A stretch of DNA of 64,000 bases from a virus: UHGV virus genome UHGV-0125821; one strand, 5' to 3'. Below, one piece after another: positions 2,846 to 23,766 of the stretch. The translations under genes were made by a program, and so were the position numbers. Position 1 is the stretch's first letter. Every line of letters begins with the position of its first letter. Below the pieces are notes generated by a model, which worked only from the letters and a program-made list of their open reading frames with translations, ran no database searches and was not told the origin of the DNA.

Positions 2846-3300
2846 TATTTGGTTGTAACACGGCGTCTGGCACATGCGTCGTTAGCGGTCTGGTGACGTT
2901 AAAAGGGGTATCTTTGACTCTTGCTTAGGCAAACGGACCAGGTAGCCGGAATGTGCAAGCCCCGGTAACAGTGGCGGACCGAGGACTCACCATCCTGGCG
3001 ATTCGGTGTGACAGCCGGAAGAGCACGGCGCACAACAGGAAAAGGCGTTTAATTAGCGTGAGCGCCGTTTCCGTTGTGGTAATTGCGGCTATGCGCTCGT
3101 GACGAAGCCATTTTCATTCACTACGTTCTGATAAGTGACGTCGCCAGGAGTGGCTAACCTGGCAGGTGGAGGCACCACCGCCACAACTCCTTTCAATTCA
3201 TCATATAGCCGCTCAGGCTGTACCCCTTAATTAATACGAAGTTACGACATCACTACCGGTACTTCCGGGGGATAGTCGCGCGTGTAAAAAAGGAGACGTT

Positions 3301-16605: not shown

Positions 16606-16883
16606 TTGTTAACCCTCAAAACTTTATGCCCGGGCGCAAAAGCACGCGTTTTGTCTTTGCTTATTCGCCAGCCATCCTTGCGCGCCTCTTTTGCACAGCC
16701 AGCCCATGACGTACCTATATACTCACCGAAGTCTGGCACTGGATATACACCTTCCGTGCACTGACGGCAGTCACAATAGAGATGCATGGTGTAACTTGCA
16801 GCGATAGCCATATCACTCTCCTTTAGTACGCAAGTGGTTTTTCCAGCGGTTTTGCGCCGCGCTGGGCTTTTTGCAAAAACCAC
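16602..16883 (-). CDS. hypothetical Cys-rich protein
   Basis: 93 aa with CDCRQC and other Cys. Confidence 0.45.
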   Translation of the reverse strand: MVFAKSPARRKTAGKTTCVLKESDMAIAASYTMHLYCDCRQCTEGVYPVPDFGEYIGTSWAGCAKEARKDGWRISKDKTRAFAPGHKVLRVNK

Positions 16884-16987: not shown

Positions 16988-17740
16988 TTACGGTTTTTCA
17001 TCGTTTTGCTCTCCTGCGTCTCCTTTGATGCAAATGCCAGCGACGCATGGCACATTAACTTCCACGATGCGCACAGTTGGTTTGTACATCTCAATCGCTG
17101 TCAGCCAGTCAGCGCCAGTCATGCGCTTTTCTGCATCGCCATTAGTCCACTTAACCGGTACACCAATAGCCTTCATCGCGATTTCTATTTCCCCGGCGAT
17201 GGCGCTTTTTCCGCAACCAGTAAAACCAGAAACAACGACAAGAACTTCACCTTTGGCTGGTTTTATTTCCCGTGCTTCCAGTTCTGCAATGCGCTTCTCT
17301 GCGGCTTCCAGCTTCTCGCGCATATCGTCAACGTACTCGACCAGAGAACCGCCAGCAGGAATTTCGCACTCCTCGACCAGTTGGAAGTAGATATCAGCTG
17401 CGGCCCGTGTGTTGCTATGCCTAGCGTCGCCCATCTCACCTTCACGAAGAGCATCGCGTTCGGCGGTAAGATTGGCTATTTTGCTGTCTTTGCCTTCCAG
17501 CTCAACACGCAGCTTCCCTACCGTTAGCGCAATATCCTCGTTCTCCTGATCGCGGCTTTTGATGTATTGCAGGTTTCTTTCCCGTTCATCCAACAATGCC
17601 AGCGCGATATCTGGCGAAAAGTGCTTCATAAAATCGTTAAGCGCATTAATTCGCTGATCGAAAGGCATTACAGGTGCTTCACCAGCAATTTTTGTTTTTT
17701 CAGCGATTTCACGAAGCTTTTGATAATCAATCTTGCTCAC
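16988..17740 (-). CDS. Ea22-like family protein
   Basis: N-terminus SKIDYQKLRE, LLDERERNLQYIKSRDQENEDIALTVGKLRVEL block; GTG start overlapping upstream stop. Confidence 0.65.
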   Translation of the reverse strand: MSKIDYQKLREIAEKTKIAGEAPVMPFDQRINALNDFMKHFSPDIALALLDERERNLQYIKSRDQENEDIALTVGKLRVELEGKDSKIANLTAERDALREGEMGDARHSNTRAAADIYFQLVEECEIPAGGSLVEYVDDMREKLEAAEKRIAELEAREIKPAKGEVLVVVSGFTGCGKSAIAGEIEIAMKAIGVPVKWTNGDAEKRMTGADWLTAIEMYKPTVRIVEVNVPCVAGICIKGDAGEQNDEKP

Positions 17741-18381
17741 TGGTTGCCTCCTTTGCGAAGCTGCTCCGCACAATGCAGCAGGGCGTCCGTCGCTTCTTTC
17801 ACCGTAACGATGTCGCCATCGTCCAGCCCGGCAACCGTCGCGTCCTTAACGAACACCGAGCAAAGGTCATTAAACGCCTGCGCACGTACTTCAGCCAGGA
17901 GAGCGTCGGTGACCGGAGTTTCAGGAATCCGTCTCCTCATCCGTTCTATTGCATGATTGAACCCGAAATCTTCAGCAAGAGATACGTCATCCATATTGTC
18001 ATTGTCGTCCTCAATATCCCGTGGTTCTGGAATTGCAGACTTTATTACCGCATTCTCCGCTGCTAGCGCCGCGCACTTGGCCTCAAGAGCGGCAACCACT
18101 TCCTGATGGTCTTTGTACTTAACGTATGAGCCGGAGATGTCATCACCTTCGGTGTTTAGCCATGCGTCATTGCAATTCACTGCGTAGGTTCTGATGCTCA
18201 TGCTGATGCTCTCCCGCCCCTGACAGACGCCAGGCCAGTCAATAAAGTATCCGCAATGCCTACCCTCAGACGTGCGCGCAGGATAAATGCCGTTATGACC
18301 CGGCAAAATATATGCTACCCATTCATCTTGCGTTGCCTGTTTCGCCGCCTCGCGCAGTTCTTTATAGTTAATTTCGCTCAC
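17737..18381 (-). CDS. Ea22-like family protein
   Basis: N-terminus MSEINYKELRE, C-terminus LRKGGNQ; GTG start overlapping upstream stop. Confidence 0.65.
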   Translation of the reverse strand: MSEINYKELREAAKQATQDEWVAYILPGHNGIYPARTSEGRHCGYFIDWPGVCQGRESISMSIRTYAVNCNDAWLNTEGDDISGSYVKYKDHQEVVAALEAKCAALAAENAVIKSAIPEPRDIEDDNDNMDDVSLAEDFGFNHAIERMRRRIPETPVTDALLAEVRAQAFNDLCSVFVKDATVAGLDDGDIVTVKEATDALLHCAEQLRKGGNQ

Positions 18382-18617
18382 TGGTTGCCTCCTTTACGGA
18401 TCTGCGCTGCGATGCGCGAAAAAAAAGACTCCCGCGTATGACTGTTAAGAGCTGGCGCGAACGCTGCGTTAAGAACAGCAGCATCACAGCCGTCATCAAT
18501 ATAGAGCGCAATTTTTTTCTCCAGGCGCGCTTTGGCTTCCTGCAACTGCATACCCCGGCACGCACGCGGGATATAATCAGCAATTTGAGCGATAGCCTTT
18601 TCGTTCTGTTTAAACAT
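18378..18617 (-). CDS. hypothetical protein carrying the RKGGNQ C-terminal module
   Basis: 79 aa ending IRKGGNQ. Confidence 0.5.
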   Translation of the reverse strand: MFKQNEKAIAQIADYIPRACRGMQLQEAKARLEKKIALYIDDGCDAAVLNAAFAPALNSHTRESFFSRIAAQIRKGGNQ

Positions 18618-18813
18618 GCTTCACCTCGATAGGCTTGATGGTGTCTAACAGCAGTCGACGGCGCGTATTTTCTGCAAAGTGGCGGCGTCCGGTATCTTTG
18701 TGGTAAAACTCATTTTTGCCGACGACCCACATCCGCTCTGTTTGGTGCAGTTTTTTTACCTGCGGACCGTCTTTGGTGATCACGGTGCCGGTATGGGTTT
18801 TTACGATTGTCAT
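18610..18813 (-). CDS. hypothetical protein
   Basis: 67-aa ORF. Confidence 0.45.
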   Translation of the reverse strand: MTIVKTHTGTVITKDGPQVKKLHQTERMWVVGKNEFYHKDTGRRHFAENTRRRLLLDTIKPIEVKHV

Positions 18814-18896
18814 GCCACTACCTCTTCGAACAGATGAACGAGACAGGCCGATGCTCGTCCACCTAAAAAGCTGACGACTTGATGCATACTCACGGT

Positions 18897-19589
18897 TTAT
18901 TCCTGAATGCGCTTAAACTCAATTACCCATACCCACGGGTTAGATAGCCAGTTATCCTGCCCGTAAATACTGCGCCAGATATCACCAAAACCAACGCGAT
19001 AAACAGCTTCCGGCGGTGTAATTTTGTACATCGCCGGAGATGCGCCTTCTGCTTTAGCATCTGCCTCGCTCATATCACGCAGCCGTTCCACACGCACGTC
19101 GGTAATTTCCAGCAAAATGCGCGATGCCCAGCGCGGCATGTGAATTGATGGACACCACCCGCCATCAAATTTTTCATTCACAGTGTGAGGTTTCCAGTCG
19201 GCATCATCGGGTATCGACCACAAGCCGTAATCACCCGGCTTTTGCTCACAACTGGCCCGATAAATCCTTGCTGCGTTCTTCTCATCGCCACGACAAAGGT
19301 TGTCGTTCCAGTCCACACTGCAACCATCCTCATTGCCTAATATCGCCCACGCCTCACGGACCCATATGCGATCACCAACGTTACCGAACGGGCATAAACC
19401 ATGTTCAGGTGCATCCATAACGTGGGTATAGACACCATTGCGTTTCTTTGTCGGTTTACGGATAACCAGGCAGTTATCGGCCCTGACATTTTTTACAGGT
19501 CGGCGAGTCTGCGTCTTCCTTCCTTCGAGGATGGCCCTGACCATCTCATCGTTAAAAATCATCCCGCGTTCTTTCATTTTTTGATCCAC
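18897..19589 (-). CDS. hypothetical protein, ASCH/PUA-like N-terminus
   Basis: MIFNDEMVRAILEGRKTQTRR pattern; start codon uncertain. Confidence 0.55.
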   Translation of the reverse strand: MDQKMKERGMIFNDEMVRAILEGRKTQTRRPVKNVRADNCLVIRKPTKKRNGVYTHVMDAPEHGLCPFGNVGDRIWVREAWAILGNEDGCSVDWNDNLCRGDEKNAARIYRASCEQKPGDYGLWSIPDDADWKPHTVNEKFDGGWCPSIHMPRWASRILLEITDVRVERLRDMSEADAKAEGASPAMYKITPPEAVYRVGFGDIWRSIYGQDNWLSNPWVWVIEFKRIQE

Positions 19590-19593
19590 CTCA

Positions 19594-20589
19594 TCAGTTA
19601 TTGAAAGTGATCACTCCGCGCTCGATGGCGAAGTCAAAAAGCTGGTTAGCGGCTACGTAAAGGCGTATGCCATGTGCTTTTTCCCATGCCCGAACATCGT
19701 TTTCTGCGCTTCTGGCGCAGTCATCGCAAAGAGGAACAGCCCAGCGGTCGTGTTCGTTTAACGAGCGGGCGCGGTACATGAACGGGTGGTTAACTTTGCC
19801 ACCGCATCCGATGCACGGACGAGAAACCACAAACCGGAGATAAGCCGGGCTTTTACCGAGGACCGCTTTTGGTCGGCGCATATAAAGCAGACCGGAATCC
19901 TCATCTACAGACAGGTTGACGATCTGCTCTGCGGTTATGTCCACCAGCTCACGGGTGCTGTGCTCCCAGGTGATATCTGATTCTTTCAGCGTACCGGTAG
20001 GGATTTCAGTTTTTGGCTGACAAAATGCAATGCGACCGGCTTCATCTGGCAGCTCATCTTTCAGATTCCGGCGAATGGCCCAAAAAGTGAGTTCAACCAT
20101 GCTCAGATCGCGTTCTGGCGGTAGTTTTAACTCGCTCGCAGCCCAGTTCATAACCCAGTTGGCACGATTCAGGGATAACTGGTCGTCCAGCTTGCTGTAC
20201 CCCTTCATCATGTATTCCGCATCATGCTTCCAGCACAGGCGAACGGCAGAGCCGTTATAGAAATGGGTGGTTAGCTGGTGGCTGCAATCGCGCTTATCGT
20301 GCGCCTGGCAATCGTGGATATTGGAACTTACCCAATGAACAAGCGAATCTTCACCGCCCAACGCGTTAAATACGCGCTCGCTTTGAAAAAACGGTTTCAG
20401 AGACTGGTTGGCAACCAGCGAATAATTCAGATCCACTACGCCATCTGGCGTGTTTTCAGCCTGTTCACGCGGAAGTGGGGAGATAATGAAACGGCGACCT
20501 GCGCCAATGTAGTTGCTGGTGGGCTTGTCTACCGGAAAGACAGCCACACCAGCTCCGTTTACGAAATGAGGTGTGATTATTGCACTCAT
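19594..20589 (-). CDS. hypothetical protein with C-terminal Cys/His cluster (possible DUF968-like)
   Basis: CIGCGGKVNH ... CDDCA near C-terminus. Confidence 0.55.
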   Translation of the reverse strand: MSAIITPHFVNGAGVAVFPVDKPTSNYIGAGRRFIISPLPREQAENTPDGVVDLNYSLVANQSLKPFFQSERVFNALGGEDSLVHWVSSNIHDCQAHDKRDCSHQLTTHFYNGSAVRLCWKHDAEYMMKGYSKLDDQLSLNRANWVMNWAASELKLPPERDLSMVELTFWAIRRNLKDELPDEAGRIAFCQPKTEIPTGTLKESDITWEHSTRELVDITAEQIVNLSVDEDSGLLYMRRPKAVLGKSPAYLRFVVSRPCIGCGGKVNHPFMYRARSLNEHDRWAVPLCDDCARSAENDVRAWEKAHGIRLYVAANQLFDFAIERGVITFNN

Positions 20590-20630
20590 AATGTATACCG
20601 ACTCTGTTTTGTTCCGAGCGGTAAAATAAT

Positions 20631-20667
20631 ATGTTAGAAAACTAAAATCAATGTTCTAACACATTTT
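20631..20667. promoter_or_regulatory. inverted pair of operator-like motifs
   Basis: ATGTTAGAAAACTAAAAT and TGTTCTAACACA facing each other. Confidence 0.5.
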
Positions 20668-20686
20668 GAGTGCGTAAATGATTTGA

Positions 20687-21367
20687 TCAGACTTTAAGCT
20701 GCCCTCCCTTCACCTGCATTAGCGTCAGATTTCCACAAAAAACCGCGCCCGTGTCTATGTAGTGCTGATTCCAGTATGCTTTTGGTCTTCGTACCGGTGT
20801 GTGCCCAAAGATAAAGCGATCTGCGCCTGTGATTTCTCCACCAATGCCATCTATCGAATCACCGACGCGACTGCGCGACCAGACAACATCAAAAAGCGAT
20901 ACATCCTTACCGAACTGGTACTCTCCACCTGGATAGTCGGCATGGGCTATAACGATAGTTTCATGTCCGGTGTTCAACTCAATGATATATGGCAGACGCT
21001 TTACCAGCTCCACCAGCGCCTTGGCTAATATTTCCTGATCAGTGTCCAGCATGAAGAACCATTGTCCGCCATTCATTAGCCAGTTATTCACGTTGCCATC
21101 TGGACTTAACGCATCAAGCATCAACCGCTCATGGTTCCCCATTACTGCCCTGAACCAGGGCATCTGCAATAGTTCCAGACATTCGACATTTTCAGTACCG
21201 CGATCGATAAGGTCGCCAACCGATATCAGTAAATCCTGCGCCGGGTCAAAATCCACACGATGGAGTTCGGACATCAGTCTGGTGTAGCAACCATGCAGAT
21301 CACCAACTACCCATATGTTTCTGTAGCCAGAACCATCAATACGGCTATATAAATTCACTTCATGCAT
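20687..21367 (-). CDS. Ser/Thr protein phosphatase (lambda PPase-like)
   Basis: GDLHG, GDLIDRG, GNHE motifs; start set at MHEVNLYS. Confidence 0.8.
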
Positions 21368-21375
21368 AGCTTGGA

Positions 21376-21687
21376 TCATGCGGCAACCTTCTCCCGCAGC
21401 CAGATACAAACTGGACCATCTTCAGTGTCATGAATAGAGCCAACAAACCAGCCTTCACCCTCTGGTCGCTCCGGTTCCCAGGCGGCAATATCGGGACCAG
21501 CTGCGTCCATATCAAAATCATCTTCATCCATACTGCGAATAGTCCACTGAAGATTATTTTCCTTCATCCAGGCGTCAAATTCCTCAGTGGAAATATATTC
21601 ACGACCTGCGCAAAACTTCTCATACTCCGGATGTGTCCAGCAGCCATATTCATCACGTTCTACCGGCATTTCTTTAATTGTGTTCAC
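21376..21687 (-). CDS. hypothetical protein
   Basis: 103-aa ORF. Confidence 0.5.
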
Positions 21688-21908
21688 TCTTCATCCTCCA
21701 AATCAGCAACCGCGTCCATCACATCAGAACCGCGAATAACTTCAAAAGCGCGGCAGGCCATTTGAAATACCCGTTGCTCTTGCGGGTGCGGAGACTCCCA
21801 ATATTTGAAGCCTGGGCGATGCGTGTACCCCATCATGGAATAAAAATCGCCAGCAAGTTCAATCGCGGCATCAACAAGTTCGCGATTTGTCATCGTCTGT
21901 TCTGTCAT
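21684..21908 (-). CDS. hypothetical protein
   Basis: 74-aa ORF. Confidence 0.45.
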   Translation of the reverse strand: MTEQTMTNRELVDAAIELAGDFYSMMGYTHRPGFKYWESPHPQEQRVFQMACRAFEVIRGSDVMDAVADLEDEE

Positions 21909-22195
21909 TTGGTTTTCTCCTGTCTGAACATCACTATCATCAGGTCGCCTTTTGTCGCTATTCTGGCTGTTGTGCCTGGTTCAATGCTGCCAAGTTCAAA
22001 TGCGTCATAGAACGCTTCTAATGCCTTCTGGCGTAGTTCCTGTTTGCGCCGTTTTTTCCACTGTTTCAGGAAAATGGAACCCAGCCATCGCCATGTACGG
22101 GACATGATGTAAAGCCAACCGAGAAGTGCCAGACCGGAATTTAGGAGCGTATCGATCGTTATTGTCGTGTCGATATTCATTGGATTCTGCCTCAT
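21905..22195 (-). CDS. small membrane protein
   Basis: TM segment LLNSGLALLGWLYIM, basic stretch after it. Confidence 0.45.
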   Translation of the reverse strand: MRQNPMNIDTTITIDTLLNSGLALLGWLYIMSRTWRWLGSIFLKQWKKRRKQELRQKALEAFYDAFELGSIEPGTTARIATKGDLMIVMFRQEKTK

Positions 22196-22271
22196 CTTTT
22201 TTCATCGTATCCCCCTCCCATGCGGGGCGACGGTGCGCCCCGTTAAAATTCAAAGTGATCAAATTCGTCAT

Positions 22272-22595
22272 TCATTTTCTTAAGTCCTCTTCCCGGATAA
22301 CGTTGTTGCACGCATCCACACACTCGTCGCAGATGAAAACGTCTTCCCCGGCAATTAACTTTTTGACGGCGTGCTGTGGTTTATTGCAGAAGCTGCAATA
22401 AAGCGTTCGCCTGACTGATACGGATGGTGCGCCAGATGTCAGCCGCGCGATGTCGTTCTTGCGACGCAATATCACACGGCTGCACTCGACCAGCATCTCC
22501 GGGGATATCTTCTCCTCCGTAGCGAGCGTTTCTAATCGTTCGAGTATGTGGAAGGCTTTTTCCTGGGTAATTGCAGAATGCGATGTGGTCATCAT
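22272..22595 (-). CDS. ClpX N-terminal zinc-binding-domain-like protein
   Basis: C-terminal [39 protein letters not shown] parallels ClpX ZBD; no AAA+ module. Confidence 0.65.
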
Positions 22596-23260
22596 CTTTT
22601 CCCTTCAAAGTTCGGGCGCAGGCAGGATTGTCCTTTACGAAGCAGGGCTGCGAACCTGTCAGCCGCATCCGCGCAAGCAGAAGCAACGGAATCAAAAAAT
22701 GGATCATCTCCGGTATCGCGCATCGTCAAAGCGAATGCCTCCAATCCCTGAGCCTGTATTTCAACAAGGTAAGCTTCAGATGTAGTGCTTTTCGCCTCGC
22801 CTAATTTGTTATGAGCTATGTTCGCTACACATGCGATGTCTATATCTGGATGATTAATTGGGAGATGGCTAAGAATTTCCTCAAGTGCTGCTTTTTTGTT
22901 TTGGCATTCCGCCACCAGCGCCCCGCAATTGCTTTCCAGCTCTGCAATACACTTTTTAGCGGCTTCCAGCTCAACACGCAGATTCTCAAGCGTTAGAGCC
23001 ATCTCCACGTTCTCGTCCAGCAGTTCAATCACATCAGGATCGCTATCATCAACTACTGTTATGCGCGATTTTTTGTAATGCTCGTCAGCATAAGTTCGTC
23101 CAGTTTTGAAGCATCCGTCATCCTCCATGCCAGAACAGGCATAAACAACATGTGATCCAGATATGCGCTGCATTGACATTTCCTCGCCACAAACAGAGCA
23201 TTTAGGCGCTGGTTTCGGTGAAAAACGTTCACGTAACGTCTGATAATAAAGCTCGCTCAC
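22592..23260 (-). CDS. Ea22-like family protein
   Basis: N-terminus [11 protein letters not shown], coiled-coil middle; GTG start overlapping upstream stop. Confidence 0.6.
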
Positions 23261-23766
23261 TGGATGACTCCTTTACGAAGCTGTTCGGCGATATCTTCGA
23301 GAACGCCATCAGAGAATGAGCGATCAAAATCGCCTTCCGGCGCATTAGCCATAAACTCAGTAGAGGTAAGAATCATCCGGGCAATATCCGCGGCGTTCTT
23401 CGCAGTATCATCAATAAAACCAGCTTTCCAGGCAGCCAGCATTCTGTTCGCCACAAAGTAAGCGCCCTCCTTGCGTGCTTCAGTCTTCACTTCATCCAGG
23501 AAAGTGTCGGTCGCAGGAGTAGTTTTTTGTGGTGATAGGGCGATACGAATTGTTTCAAGAGCTGGATCTATTTCCACTGTTGGCACCTTGATAAAACCAA
23601 GCTGCACGCCATTCATAATGAACGTGCGGCGATCCTCACATATCGCCTTCAGTCTCGCATTCTCCGCAGCCAGCGCCGCGCGCTCTTTCTCAAGTCGGGA
23701 AATTTCCGTTACATACTCAGCGTTACGCTCTGCCAGTTGTGCGGGCGTTAAACCTTCAGACTTCAT
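23257..23766 (-). CDS. hypothetical protein with RKG..Q C-terminal module
   Basis: ends EQLRKGVIQ. Confidence 0.55.
   Translation of the reverse strand: MKSEGLTPAQLAERNAEYVTEISRLEKERAALAAENARLKAICEDRRTFIMNGVQLGFIKVPTVEIDPALETIRIALSPQKTTPATDTFLDEVKTEARKEGAYFVANRMLAAWKAGFIDDTAKNAADIARMILTSTEFMANAPEGDFDRSFSDGVLEDIAEQLRKGVIQ

Follow-up and report, generated by a model that had tools for sequence, protein, structure and literature searches.

A recurrent GTGA gene junction in a D6-like phage-plasmid as a putative translation-initiation cassette and recombination boundary ahead of Ea22-like genes

The exchange of gene modules among temperate phages has been addressed by the boundary-sequence model of mosaicism (Susskind & Botstein 1978; Clark et al. 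2001, phage HK620; described in PMC3233612, PMC3029335 and PMC2327257), and phage recombinases are known to act on diverged and very short sequences (PMC2327257). Here, we analyze a sequence of this kind in UHGV virus genome UHGV-0125821, from which a stretch of 64,000 nucleotides (hereafter, the window) was examined over its full length. It is a gene junction, present in three copies, at which the stop codon of one gene overlaps the GTG start codon of the next one, a gene of the Ead/Ea22 family (PF13935), and the Shine-Dalgarno (SD) sequence lies within the last codons of the first gene. Translational coupling by overlapping stop and start codons, with the SD in the upstream gene, is a feature of E. 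coli trpE-trpD and trpB-trpA and of many phage operons. Judged by sequence, the junction is like coupled pairs such as trpE-trpD in its 4-nt GTGA overlap, in the location of the SD in the last codons of the upstream open reading frame (ORF), and in the optimal distance between SD and start. Unlike the usual coupled pairs, however, it consists of a single SD-spacer-start sequence, with near-identical nucleotides, that is re-used by dozens of unrelated gene pairs. In this respect, it resembles the lambdoid boundary (linker) sequences, which are short, conserved, located at gene boundaries and flanked by unrelated genes, and for which the model proposes homologous module exchange; it differs from the earlier cases in being hosted by a D6-like phage-plasmid and in occurring three times in one operon.

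The Ead/Ea22 genes are mosaic genes of the exo-xis region (PMC7093339, PMC10834534), and the three genes downstream of the junction agree with their published description, having a short common N-terminal segment, a coiled coil and variable C-terminal domains. Lambda ea22 likewise has a GTG start overlapping with the stop codon of the upstream gene, orf73, but the junction after orf73 is a different sequence, AGAGGTTCGAAGTGAGC. Neither start/stop overlaps nor SD sequences are discussed in the Ea22 papers (PMC7093339, PMC10834534). A literature search for KGGNQ and the DNA core of the junction gave chance matches only, and the junction, its SD role and its reading in two frames were not found in the literature searched; the HK620 paper of 2001 by Clark, Inwood, Cloutier and Dhillon, which reportedly deals with the boundary-sequence model, may list the sequence.

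We consider it likely that the junction is a portable translation-initiation and coupling cassette of an accessory early operon that doubles as a recombination boundary; both roles, translation and recombination, we infer from sequence. This reading draws on four observations, namely, the anatomy of the junction, its conservation at the nucleotide level, its combinatorial partners, and the gain or loss of a cassette bounded by two of its copies.

Anatomy of the junction and initiation of the downstream gene

All genes concerned are on the minus strand, within a long, tightly packed operon in which neighboring genes mostly overlap by 4-14 nt, as well (Table 1). A preliminary description of the window had reported three genes with a conserved C-terminal end, each followed by a GTG that overlaps the stop codon as GTGA. 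The ORFs agree with this: the upstream genes end at 17737 (...AEQLRKGGNQ), 18378 (...AAQIRKGGNQ) and 23257, and the same three GTG starts are given in the annotation of the identical plasmid ptetA by the Prokaryotic Genome Annotation Pipeline (PGAP). Aligned without gaps across the three junctions, the core reads CG(T/C)AAAGGAG(G/T)CA(A/T)CCAGTGAGC(G/A)A, i.e., a unit of ~20 nt, AAAGGAGGCAACCAGTGAGC, composed of a near-consensus SD, a 6-nt spacer and the GTG overlapping the upstream TGA. When up to three mismatches are allowed, the core CGYAAAGGAG(G/T)CA(A/T)CCAGTGAGCRA has three copies in the 64 kb, compared to 0.00 expected (100 shuffles); a looser 15-mer scan of the window gave chance-level matches only and no further real copy. 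A repeat search of the window yielded a 61-nt family consisting of copies 1-3, which are 77-80% identical. Thus, the ~30-bp junction used three times, as previously described, stands as a family of three, whereas exact identity extends over 20 nt between copies 1 and 2 and over no more than 11 nt where copy 3 is involved; similarly, the SD-containing DNA said to be common to the three gene ends is AAAGGAGG in copies 1 and 2 only, copy 3 having AAAGGAGT. A degenerate fourth copy, comprising only the upstream half, is located inside the 222-aa gene and is probably a fossil junction.

In the 214-aa and 222-aa genes, no possible start codon lies between the preceding in-frame stop and the GTG. The predicted pairing of AAAGGAGG with the anti-SD at the 3' end of 16S rRNA is -11.6 kcal/mol in copies 1 and 2, the top value among the 17 gene starts of the operon; the corresponding value for the copy 3 variant is -8.2 kcal/mol, and the 14 gene starts outside the junction copies range from -5.3 to -9.3 kcal/mol. 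The GGAGG is 6 nt away from the GTG, and the layout is that of coupled pairs, in which a GTGA overlap is combined with an SD located within the upstream ORF at 5-9 nt. Furthermore, in 114 Ea22-type genes behind the junction, codons 5-11 are considered to be translated because their variation is mostly synonymous (GAC/GAT, AAT/AAC, TAT/TAC, CAG/CAA, five Leu codons, CGT/CGC, GAG/GAA), and position 1 of the Pfam Ead_Ea22 profile aligns to residue 2 of the downstream proteins; given these two results, no separate internal start is needed. The proposal of the preliminary description that the C-terminal codons double as the ribosome-binding site is supported by the predicted pairing, by the 6-nt distance, and by the retention of the same nucleotides where they are read in another frame (see below).

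We infer that the GTG is used with this SD and that the gene pair is translationally coupled: a ribosome finishing the upstream gene would restart at the overlapping GTG, in a long operon without intergenic gaps. According to RNA structure prediction, none of the three junctions folds significantly (z-scores +0.44, +0.97 and -0.65). The SD of the CTTCGC variant can be covered by a 5-bp hairpin, GCUUC/GAGGC, which is not retained in other variants. Because no SD-occluding structure is predicted, initiation independent of the upstream gene is also possible. Promoter-like sites between the operon genes were found at no more than the chance level.

Spread of the junction and reassortment of its partners

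The preliminary description had made its reading depend on conservation of the junction in relatives, which turned out to be extensive. A scan of IMG/VR with AAAGGAGNNANCCAGTGAGC located the junction on at least 120 contigs, and an 80-nt junction sequence has matches in 283 phage records, including Stx1/Stx2 converting phages, HK-series lambdoids, P22-like Salmonella phages and Shigella phages. In complete E. coli genomes, it is found at 2225 places in 1460 of 5426 genomes, at most nine times per genome and mostly in chromosomal prophages; in HK620, it lies between hkaH and hkaG, with the boundary sequence AAAGGAGGCAGCCAGTGAGC. Both this breadth and the reading of the core in two frames are quantified here. 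The cassette would belong to the accessory early region of the ea / exo-xis type of enterobacterial temperate phages. For an independent sample, 118 Ea22-type starts were collected with a DNA pattern confined to the coding region; in addition, a scan of genome contigs with an alignment of the Ea22 N-terminus gave 106 pattern matches, with two loci confirmed (the variable region is not shared). This junction accounts for 56 (47%) of the 118 starts and the lambda orf73 type, in which orf73 ends in ...KQRGSK and ea22 starts in AAGTGAGC, for 20 (17%); the remaining starts have ATGA/GTGA overlaps of other kinds. At Ea22-type starts, no other solution is as common as this junction, but it is not the sole one.

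The upstream genes read the core in two frames, ending in ...RKGGNQ (frame A) or in ...AKEATSE(R/Q)(N/D) (frame B). The core is inside the upstream gene and therefore sets the last residues of that gene before the stop codon, KGGNQ or KEATSE(R/Q)(N/D). There are 148 frame A and 18-19 frame B cases in 173 instances, the frame having been assigned by full-length PHROG match, since the 79-aa family is open in both frames. Frame A is used by Eae-like mosaics (...F/IA(A/E)QLRKGGNQ), phrog_1344 (the 79-aa family) and DUF2737 (...NAMWRKGGNQ); a further upstream family at IMG/VR junctions consists of 174-aa proteins ending in ...AQHKGDNQ. The frame B genes end 14 nt inside the Ea22 gene and represent three families: Lar-like restriction-alleviation proteins (PF14354), ending in ...AEWNQRAKEATSE(R/Q)(N/D); phrog_3126, with a full-length profile match, ending in ...QKLEGPAKEATSE..; and an ASCH-like protein of a sister plasmid, ending in ...RIQGATSEQN. 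Since the core has two reading frames upstream, its conservation is at the nucleotide level, which points to selection on DNA or RNA rather than on the C-terminal peptide.

The partners on the two sides of the junction occur in many combinations. In 153 distinct 800-nt junction contexts, 25 upstream and 29 downstream sequence clusters form 70 combinations, and information content exceeds the background solely from about -31 to +48 around the start codon. When all 11,628 pairs of contexts were compared, 91% were similar just in an island within -60..+80; the upstream gene alone was common to 553 pairs, the downstream gene alone to 388 pairs, and both genes to 74 pairs. A survey of all 16-mers at ~200 loci placed the core first in flank diversity, with 28 different contexts on the left and 28 on the right, although many of these loci had been collected with the core itself; the runner-up, a TIR-type sequence, AAAGGAGAGTGATATG, was not used for locus collection. 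The junction is, accordingly, short, located at a gene boundary, conserved among phages and flanked by non-homologous modules, as expected of a boundary sequence. The core together with its protein-conserved flanks, i.e., ...A(A/E)QLR on one side and MS(K/E)I(D/N)YQALREAAE, the Ea22 N-terminal segment, on the other side, would constitute a similarity island of ~60-80 nt. Because the island is common to otherwise unrelated gene pairs, within one genome as well as among co-infecting phages and prophages, it may also be a crossover point, at which gene cassettes would be exchanged, inserted or deleted; the exchanges would then have arisen by homology-driven recombination at the island.

The closest comparison is that with plasmid L221, the flanks of which are 95-98% identical to the window. 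Where the window has a junction, the 214-aa gene and a second junction, L221 has one junction; the difference is exactly one 641-bp Ea22 cassette bounded by two junction copies. Along with the 70 combinations, this gain or loss of a cassette bears out the module shuffling at the junction that had been proposed for the window. In a three-way alignment, the left part of L221 matches copy 2 and its right part copy 1, and the change of partner falls within the common core, a pattern that is compatible with homologous recombination in the core but is no proof of it. L221 also has an additional Ea22-like cassette that ends in ...EQIRKGSSQ and overlaps the GTG of the DUF4752 gene at GTGAATATCGAC (L221 6128-6143). 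In the window, the place of this extra cassette is taken by a 95-nt spacer containing a GC-rich hairpin, and GAGGCAGAATCCAATGA, a degenerate junction core, precedes the start of the DUF4752 gene (22180-22200, minus strand).

Several observations weigh against a cassette that recombines by homology. The ASCH-like gene of plasmid L219 is joined to a truncated core via ~4 nt of microhomology, and the sister plasmids L219 and L220 are without the body of the 169-aa gene, which was deleted at non-junction sites. The exact repeat within the window, 20 nt and no more than 11 nt with copy 3, is short for RecA. The cassette is not required for Ea22 expression, because just 47% of the 118 independently sampled starts use it. 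The IMG/VR and E. coli samples are phylogenetically non-independent, and two of the collections were ascertained with the motif itself.

Some of these points can be accommodated by the principal alternative, in which the junction is the 5' initiation region carried along by Ea22-type genes and by a few others, the island is a passenger, and the mosaics result from illegitimate or microhomology recombination followed by selection (Hendrix/Juhala). This is the prevailing model in the literature (PMC3233612, PMC2327257), and the L219 join between the ASCH-like and Ea22 genes, which retains only GGGGCAACCAGTGA of the core, the non-junction deletions in L219 and L220, and the presence of other junctions at about half of the Ea22 starts all fit it. 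The termination of upstream genes in either frame is also what random joining followed by termination at the first stop should produce. However, a passenger 5' region leaves unexplained why the island reaches ~30 nt upstream of the start into many different genes (...A(A/E)QLRKGGNQ). Moreover, the cassette that distinguishes the window from L221 has a junction copy at each end, the alignment changes partner within the common core, and upstream and downstream modules pair many-to-many, always at the same nucleotide positions. We regard the passenger explanation as possible but rather unlikely to account for the junction as a whole, and as partly right, in that it seems valid for some joins. Indeed, illegitimate recombination followed by selection appears to operate here as well, because some joins, those of L219 and L220, are clearly not homology-driven. 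In L219 (7859) and L220 (7435), compared to the window (23259-23727, minus strand), the first 13 codons of the 169-aa gene are fused to the second codon of the 222-aa gene; the ends of this deletion of the 169-aa gene body are not both within the junction.

Peptide, duplication and frameshift explanations

Conservation could also reside in the protein, with (L/I)RKGGNQ being a functional C-terminal peptide, such as an interaction or degradation tag, and the SD-like sequence a by-product. Part of the segment does have the expected property: the upstream A-(A/E)-Q-L-R codons vary synonymously (GCC/GCT/GCA/GCG, CGC/CGT/CGA), and A(A/E)QLR thus behaves like a conserved protein end. It also persists with another tail, both in Eae of the P22-like phage S149, which has a different downstream gene, keeps ...ADQLRKG and ends in VHS with an ATGA overlap, and inside the 222-aa protein (...FAALLRKG...). 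KGGNQ, on the other hand, terminates unrelated proteins, e.g., DUF2737 and phrog_1344, and the identical nucleotides are read as AKEATSE... by the Lar-like, phrog_3126 and ASCH-like proteins. The 79-aa protein is similar to the 214-aa Ea22-like protein in its last 10 residues (AAQIRKGGNQ) alone, and, when the downstream gene is a new one, the residues after RKG change as well. Taken together, these results make a functional peptide improbable, and the KGGNQ-stop segment is best viewed as the footprint of the initiation region of the next gene.

A related pattern is seen downstream of the start. Codon 4 of Ea22-type genes is ATT in all 95 cases in which it was not forced by the search, and this ATT preserves the frame B stop (ATT-GAY gives TGA, ATT-AAY gives TAA). 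Since the sequences are related, the invariance is only suggestive of a stop codon that is kept for frame B. At locus L123, an Ea22-like start with a different junction has the Ile codon ATC. This locus (3001-3219 of NZ_JBQPOM010000071.1, a 226-kb contig labelled Vagococcus sp., a Firmicute) encodes the Ea22-like N-terminus MSEINYQALREAAQNY, and its start is an ATG with a separate AAGGAG SD after a TAA stop; an Ea22-like sequence in a Firmicute-labelled assembly may reflect contamination or mislabelling.

A further possibility is that the three copies are remnants of a recent local tandem duplication of one Ea22-like gene, without wider significance. Copies 1 and 2 are, indeed, 641 bp apart and flank one Ea22-like gene, and the downstream genes belong to a single Pfam family. 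The paralogs, however, are just 21-26% identical outside the short termini, two of the upstream genes are unrelated to Ea22, and the island is present in hundreds of phages with dozens of different partners; a duplication is, consequently, very improbable. The same comparisons qualify the earlier characterization of the genes as Ea22-like paralogs, which holds for all three downstream genes and, among the upstream ones, for the 214-aa gene only, the upstream partners being mostly not Ea22 paralogs. The common N-terminal module with variable middles that had been described for the downstream genes was recovered: MS(K/E)(I/L)xY(Q/K)xLRE, a coiled-coil stretch and ...LRKG are common to the three proteins, the pairwise identities of which are just 21-26% overall.

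The least credible explanation is a programmed frameshift of the prfB or dnaX kind that would join the upstream protein to the downstream one. The succession of an SD-like element 4 nt before the last sense codon and a UGA is superficially prfB-like, but the explanation was rejected because the sequence is without a slippery site (re-pairing of CAG is impossible in the +1 and -1 frames), only 4 codons would be added before a stop by a +1 shift, no structured RNA is predicted (the z-scores given above), and a separate start codon of the downstream frame is suitably spaced from the SD.

The carrier element, further junctions and significance

Sequence identity is 100% between the window and E. 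coli plasmid ptetA (NZ_CP047013.1, 93 kb) and 97% between the rest of the window and Escherichia phage D6; on these identities, the carrier is classified as a D6-like phage-plasmid. The 250-, 214- and 222-aa downstream proteins all exceed the Pfam gathering threshold of PF13935 (27 bits), and PGAP names all three ead/Ea22-like. Pfam searches with the 79-aa and 169-aa upstream proteins gave no match, PF13935 included; the 169-aa protein shares a coiled-coil/TPATD module with the 214-aa protein (33% identity). Only the 214-aa gene, which makes up the 641-bp cassette, has the junction at both ends, and the 250-aa protein has no RKGGNQ-type motif at its C-terminus. The C-terminal third of the latter (16988-17300, minus strand) contains a Walker-A-like GFTGCGKS in a short domain (phrog_11761), an unusual cargo for an Ea22-like protein.

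Table 1. Junction copies in the window and the genes that they connect
Feature	Position	Strand	Details
Junction copy 1 (214-aa end / 250-aa start)	17709..17769	-	SD AAAGGAGG 17754-17747; GTG 17740-17738 (start at 17740); TGA 17739-17737; GTGA 17737-17740
Junction copy 2 (79-aa end / 214-aa start)	18350..18410	-	SD AAAGGAGG 18395-18388; GTG 18381-18379 (start at 18381); TGA 18380-18378; GTGA 18378-18381
Junction copy 3, variant AAAGGAGTCATCCAGTGA (169-aa end / 222-aa start)	23229..23289	-	SD AAAGGAGT 23274-23267; GTG 23260-23258 (start at 23260); TGA 23259-23257; GTGA 23257-23260
Degenerate fourth copy, upstream half of junction only, inside 222-aa gene	22631..22653	-	...FAALLRKG, then 12 more codons
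Downstream gene, 250 aa, Ead/Ea22-like	16988..17740	-	PF13935, E 2e-17, 64.4 bits; N-terminus MSKIDYQKLREIAEK
214-aa gene, Ead/Ea22-like	17737..18381	-	PF13935, E 1e-24, 88.2 bits
Upstream gene, 79 aa	18378..18617	-	phrog_1344; no Pfam match
Downstream gene, 222 aa, Ead/Ea22-like, zinc-ribbon-like insert	22592..23260	-	PF13935, E 2e-12, 48.5 bits
Upstream gene, 169 aa, Eae-like C-terminal module	23257..23766	-	phrog_14548/614; no Pfam match

Other recurrent junctions were encountered. The (K/R)GE C-terminal motif of Ea22 has been listed as being of unknown significance (PMC7093339). It is encoded by a second recurrent junction, AAAGGAGAGTGA(N)ATG, which is found in the window (16809-16824, minus strand), in lambda (L217, 548-560) and in HK620 (L218, 2790-2805). 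In HK620, AAAGGAGAGTGA is the SD, with a 6-nt spacer, of the next gene, hkaF; in lambda, ATC takes the place of ATG and no gene follows, so that the sequence looks like a fossil. The window has an exact copy of this junction (...RTKGE and a stop, then ATG) and a related sequence, AAAGGAGAGTGTATG, ahead of the 169-aa gene. Although AAAGGAGAGTGA played no part in locus collection, it has 18 x 18 different flanks in the 16-mer survey. The same survey (loci L002-L216, several places) returned the block CACTACAGCTTATCCAACCATCCGGAGTTACCG with 16-23 different flanks; it may lie in DUF551/EaA-type genes and could be another conserved linker inside accessory genes. One more GTGA junction of the window (21684-21687, minus strand) lies between the 74-aa and 103-aa genes. 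The same end of the upstream gene also precedes Ea22-type starts in 7 of the 118 independently sampled loci, and homologues of the 74-aa gene are located behind the canonical junction at six loci.

The gene organization described here can be compared to integron (attC) cassettes: in both, promoterless genes with a short recurring element on either side enter and leave an operon as complete units. Unlike in integrons, the bounding element is a coding sequence and translation signal rather than a recombination site recognized by an integrase, and no attC-type fold was found in the RNA structure test; to our knowledge, the junction cassettes have no dedicated site-specific recombinase and no circular cassette intermediate. 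The comparison is, therefore, an analogy only.

The concepts involved, conserved boundary sequences and translational coupling, are already established, and, apart from its value as a test case and as a warning on motifs, the mechanism is ordinary phage gene organization. The warning is that conserved C-terminal 'motifs' of small phage proteins can be the footprint of the ribosome-binding site of the next gene, not a functional peptide, as appears to be the case for RKGGNQ here and, probably, also for the (K/R)GE end of Ea22. As a test case, the junction bears on the debate on phage mosaicism, conducted since 1978, between homologous exchange at short linkers and illegitimate joining followed by selection: it is abundant and sharply defined, is carried by over one quarter of the complete E. 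coli genomes, and has dozens of partners and several copies within single operons. A bolder interpretation, which we consider doubtful, is that the core evolved as a frame-independent 'gene-end adaptor' in recombinase-driven exchange of accessory-gene cassettes, comparable to integron cassettes but based on homologous recombination. The adaptor would unite a strong SD and a GTG with stops in both other frames (the TGA of GTGA, and the TGA/TAA across ATT-GAY/AAY in codons 4-5), such that termination and coupling would be automatic for every ORF brought in upstream by recombination. If true, this would provide the linker model of phage mosaicism, which has long been disputed, with a concrete and testable case.

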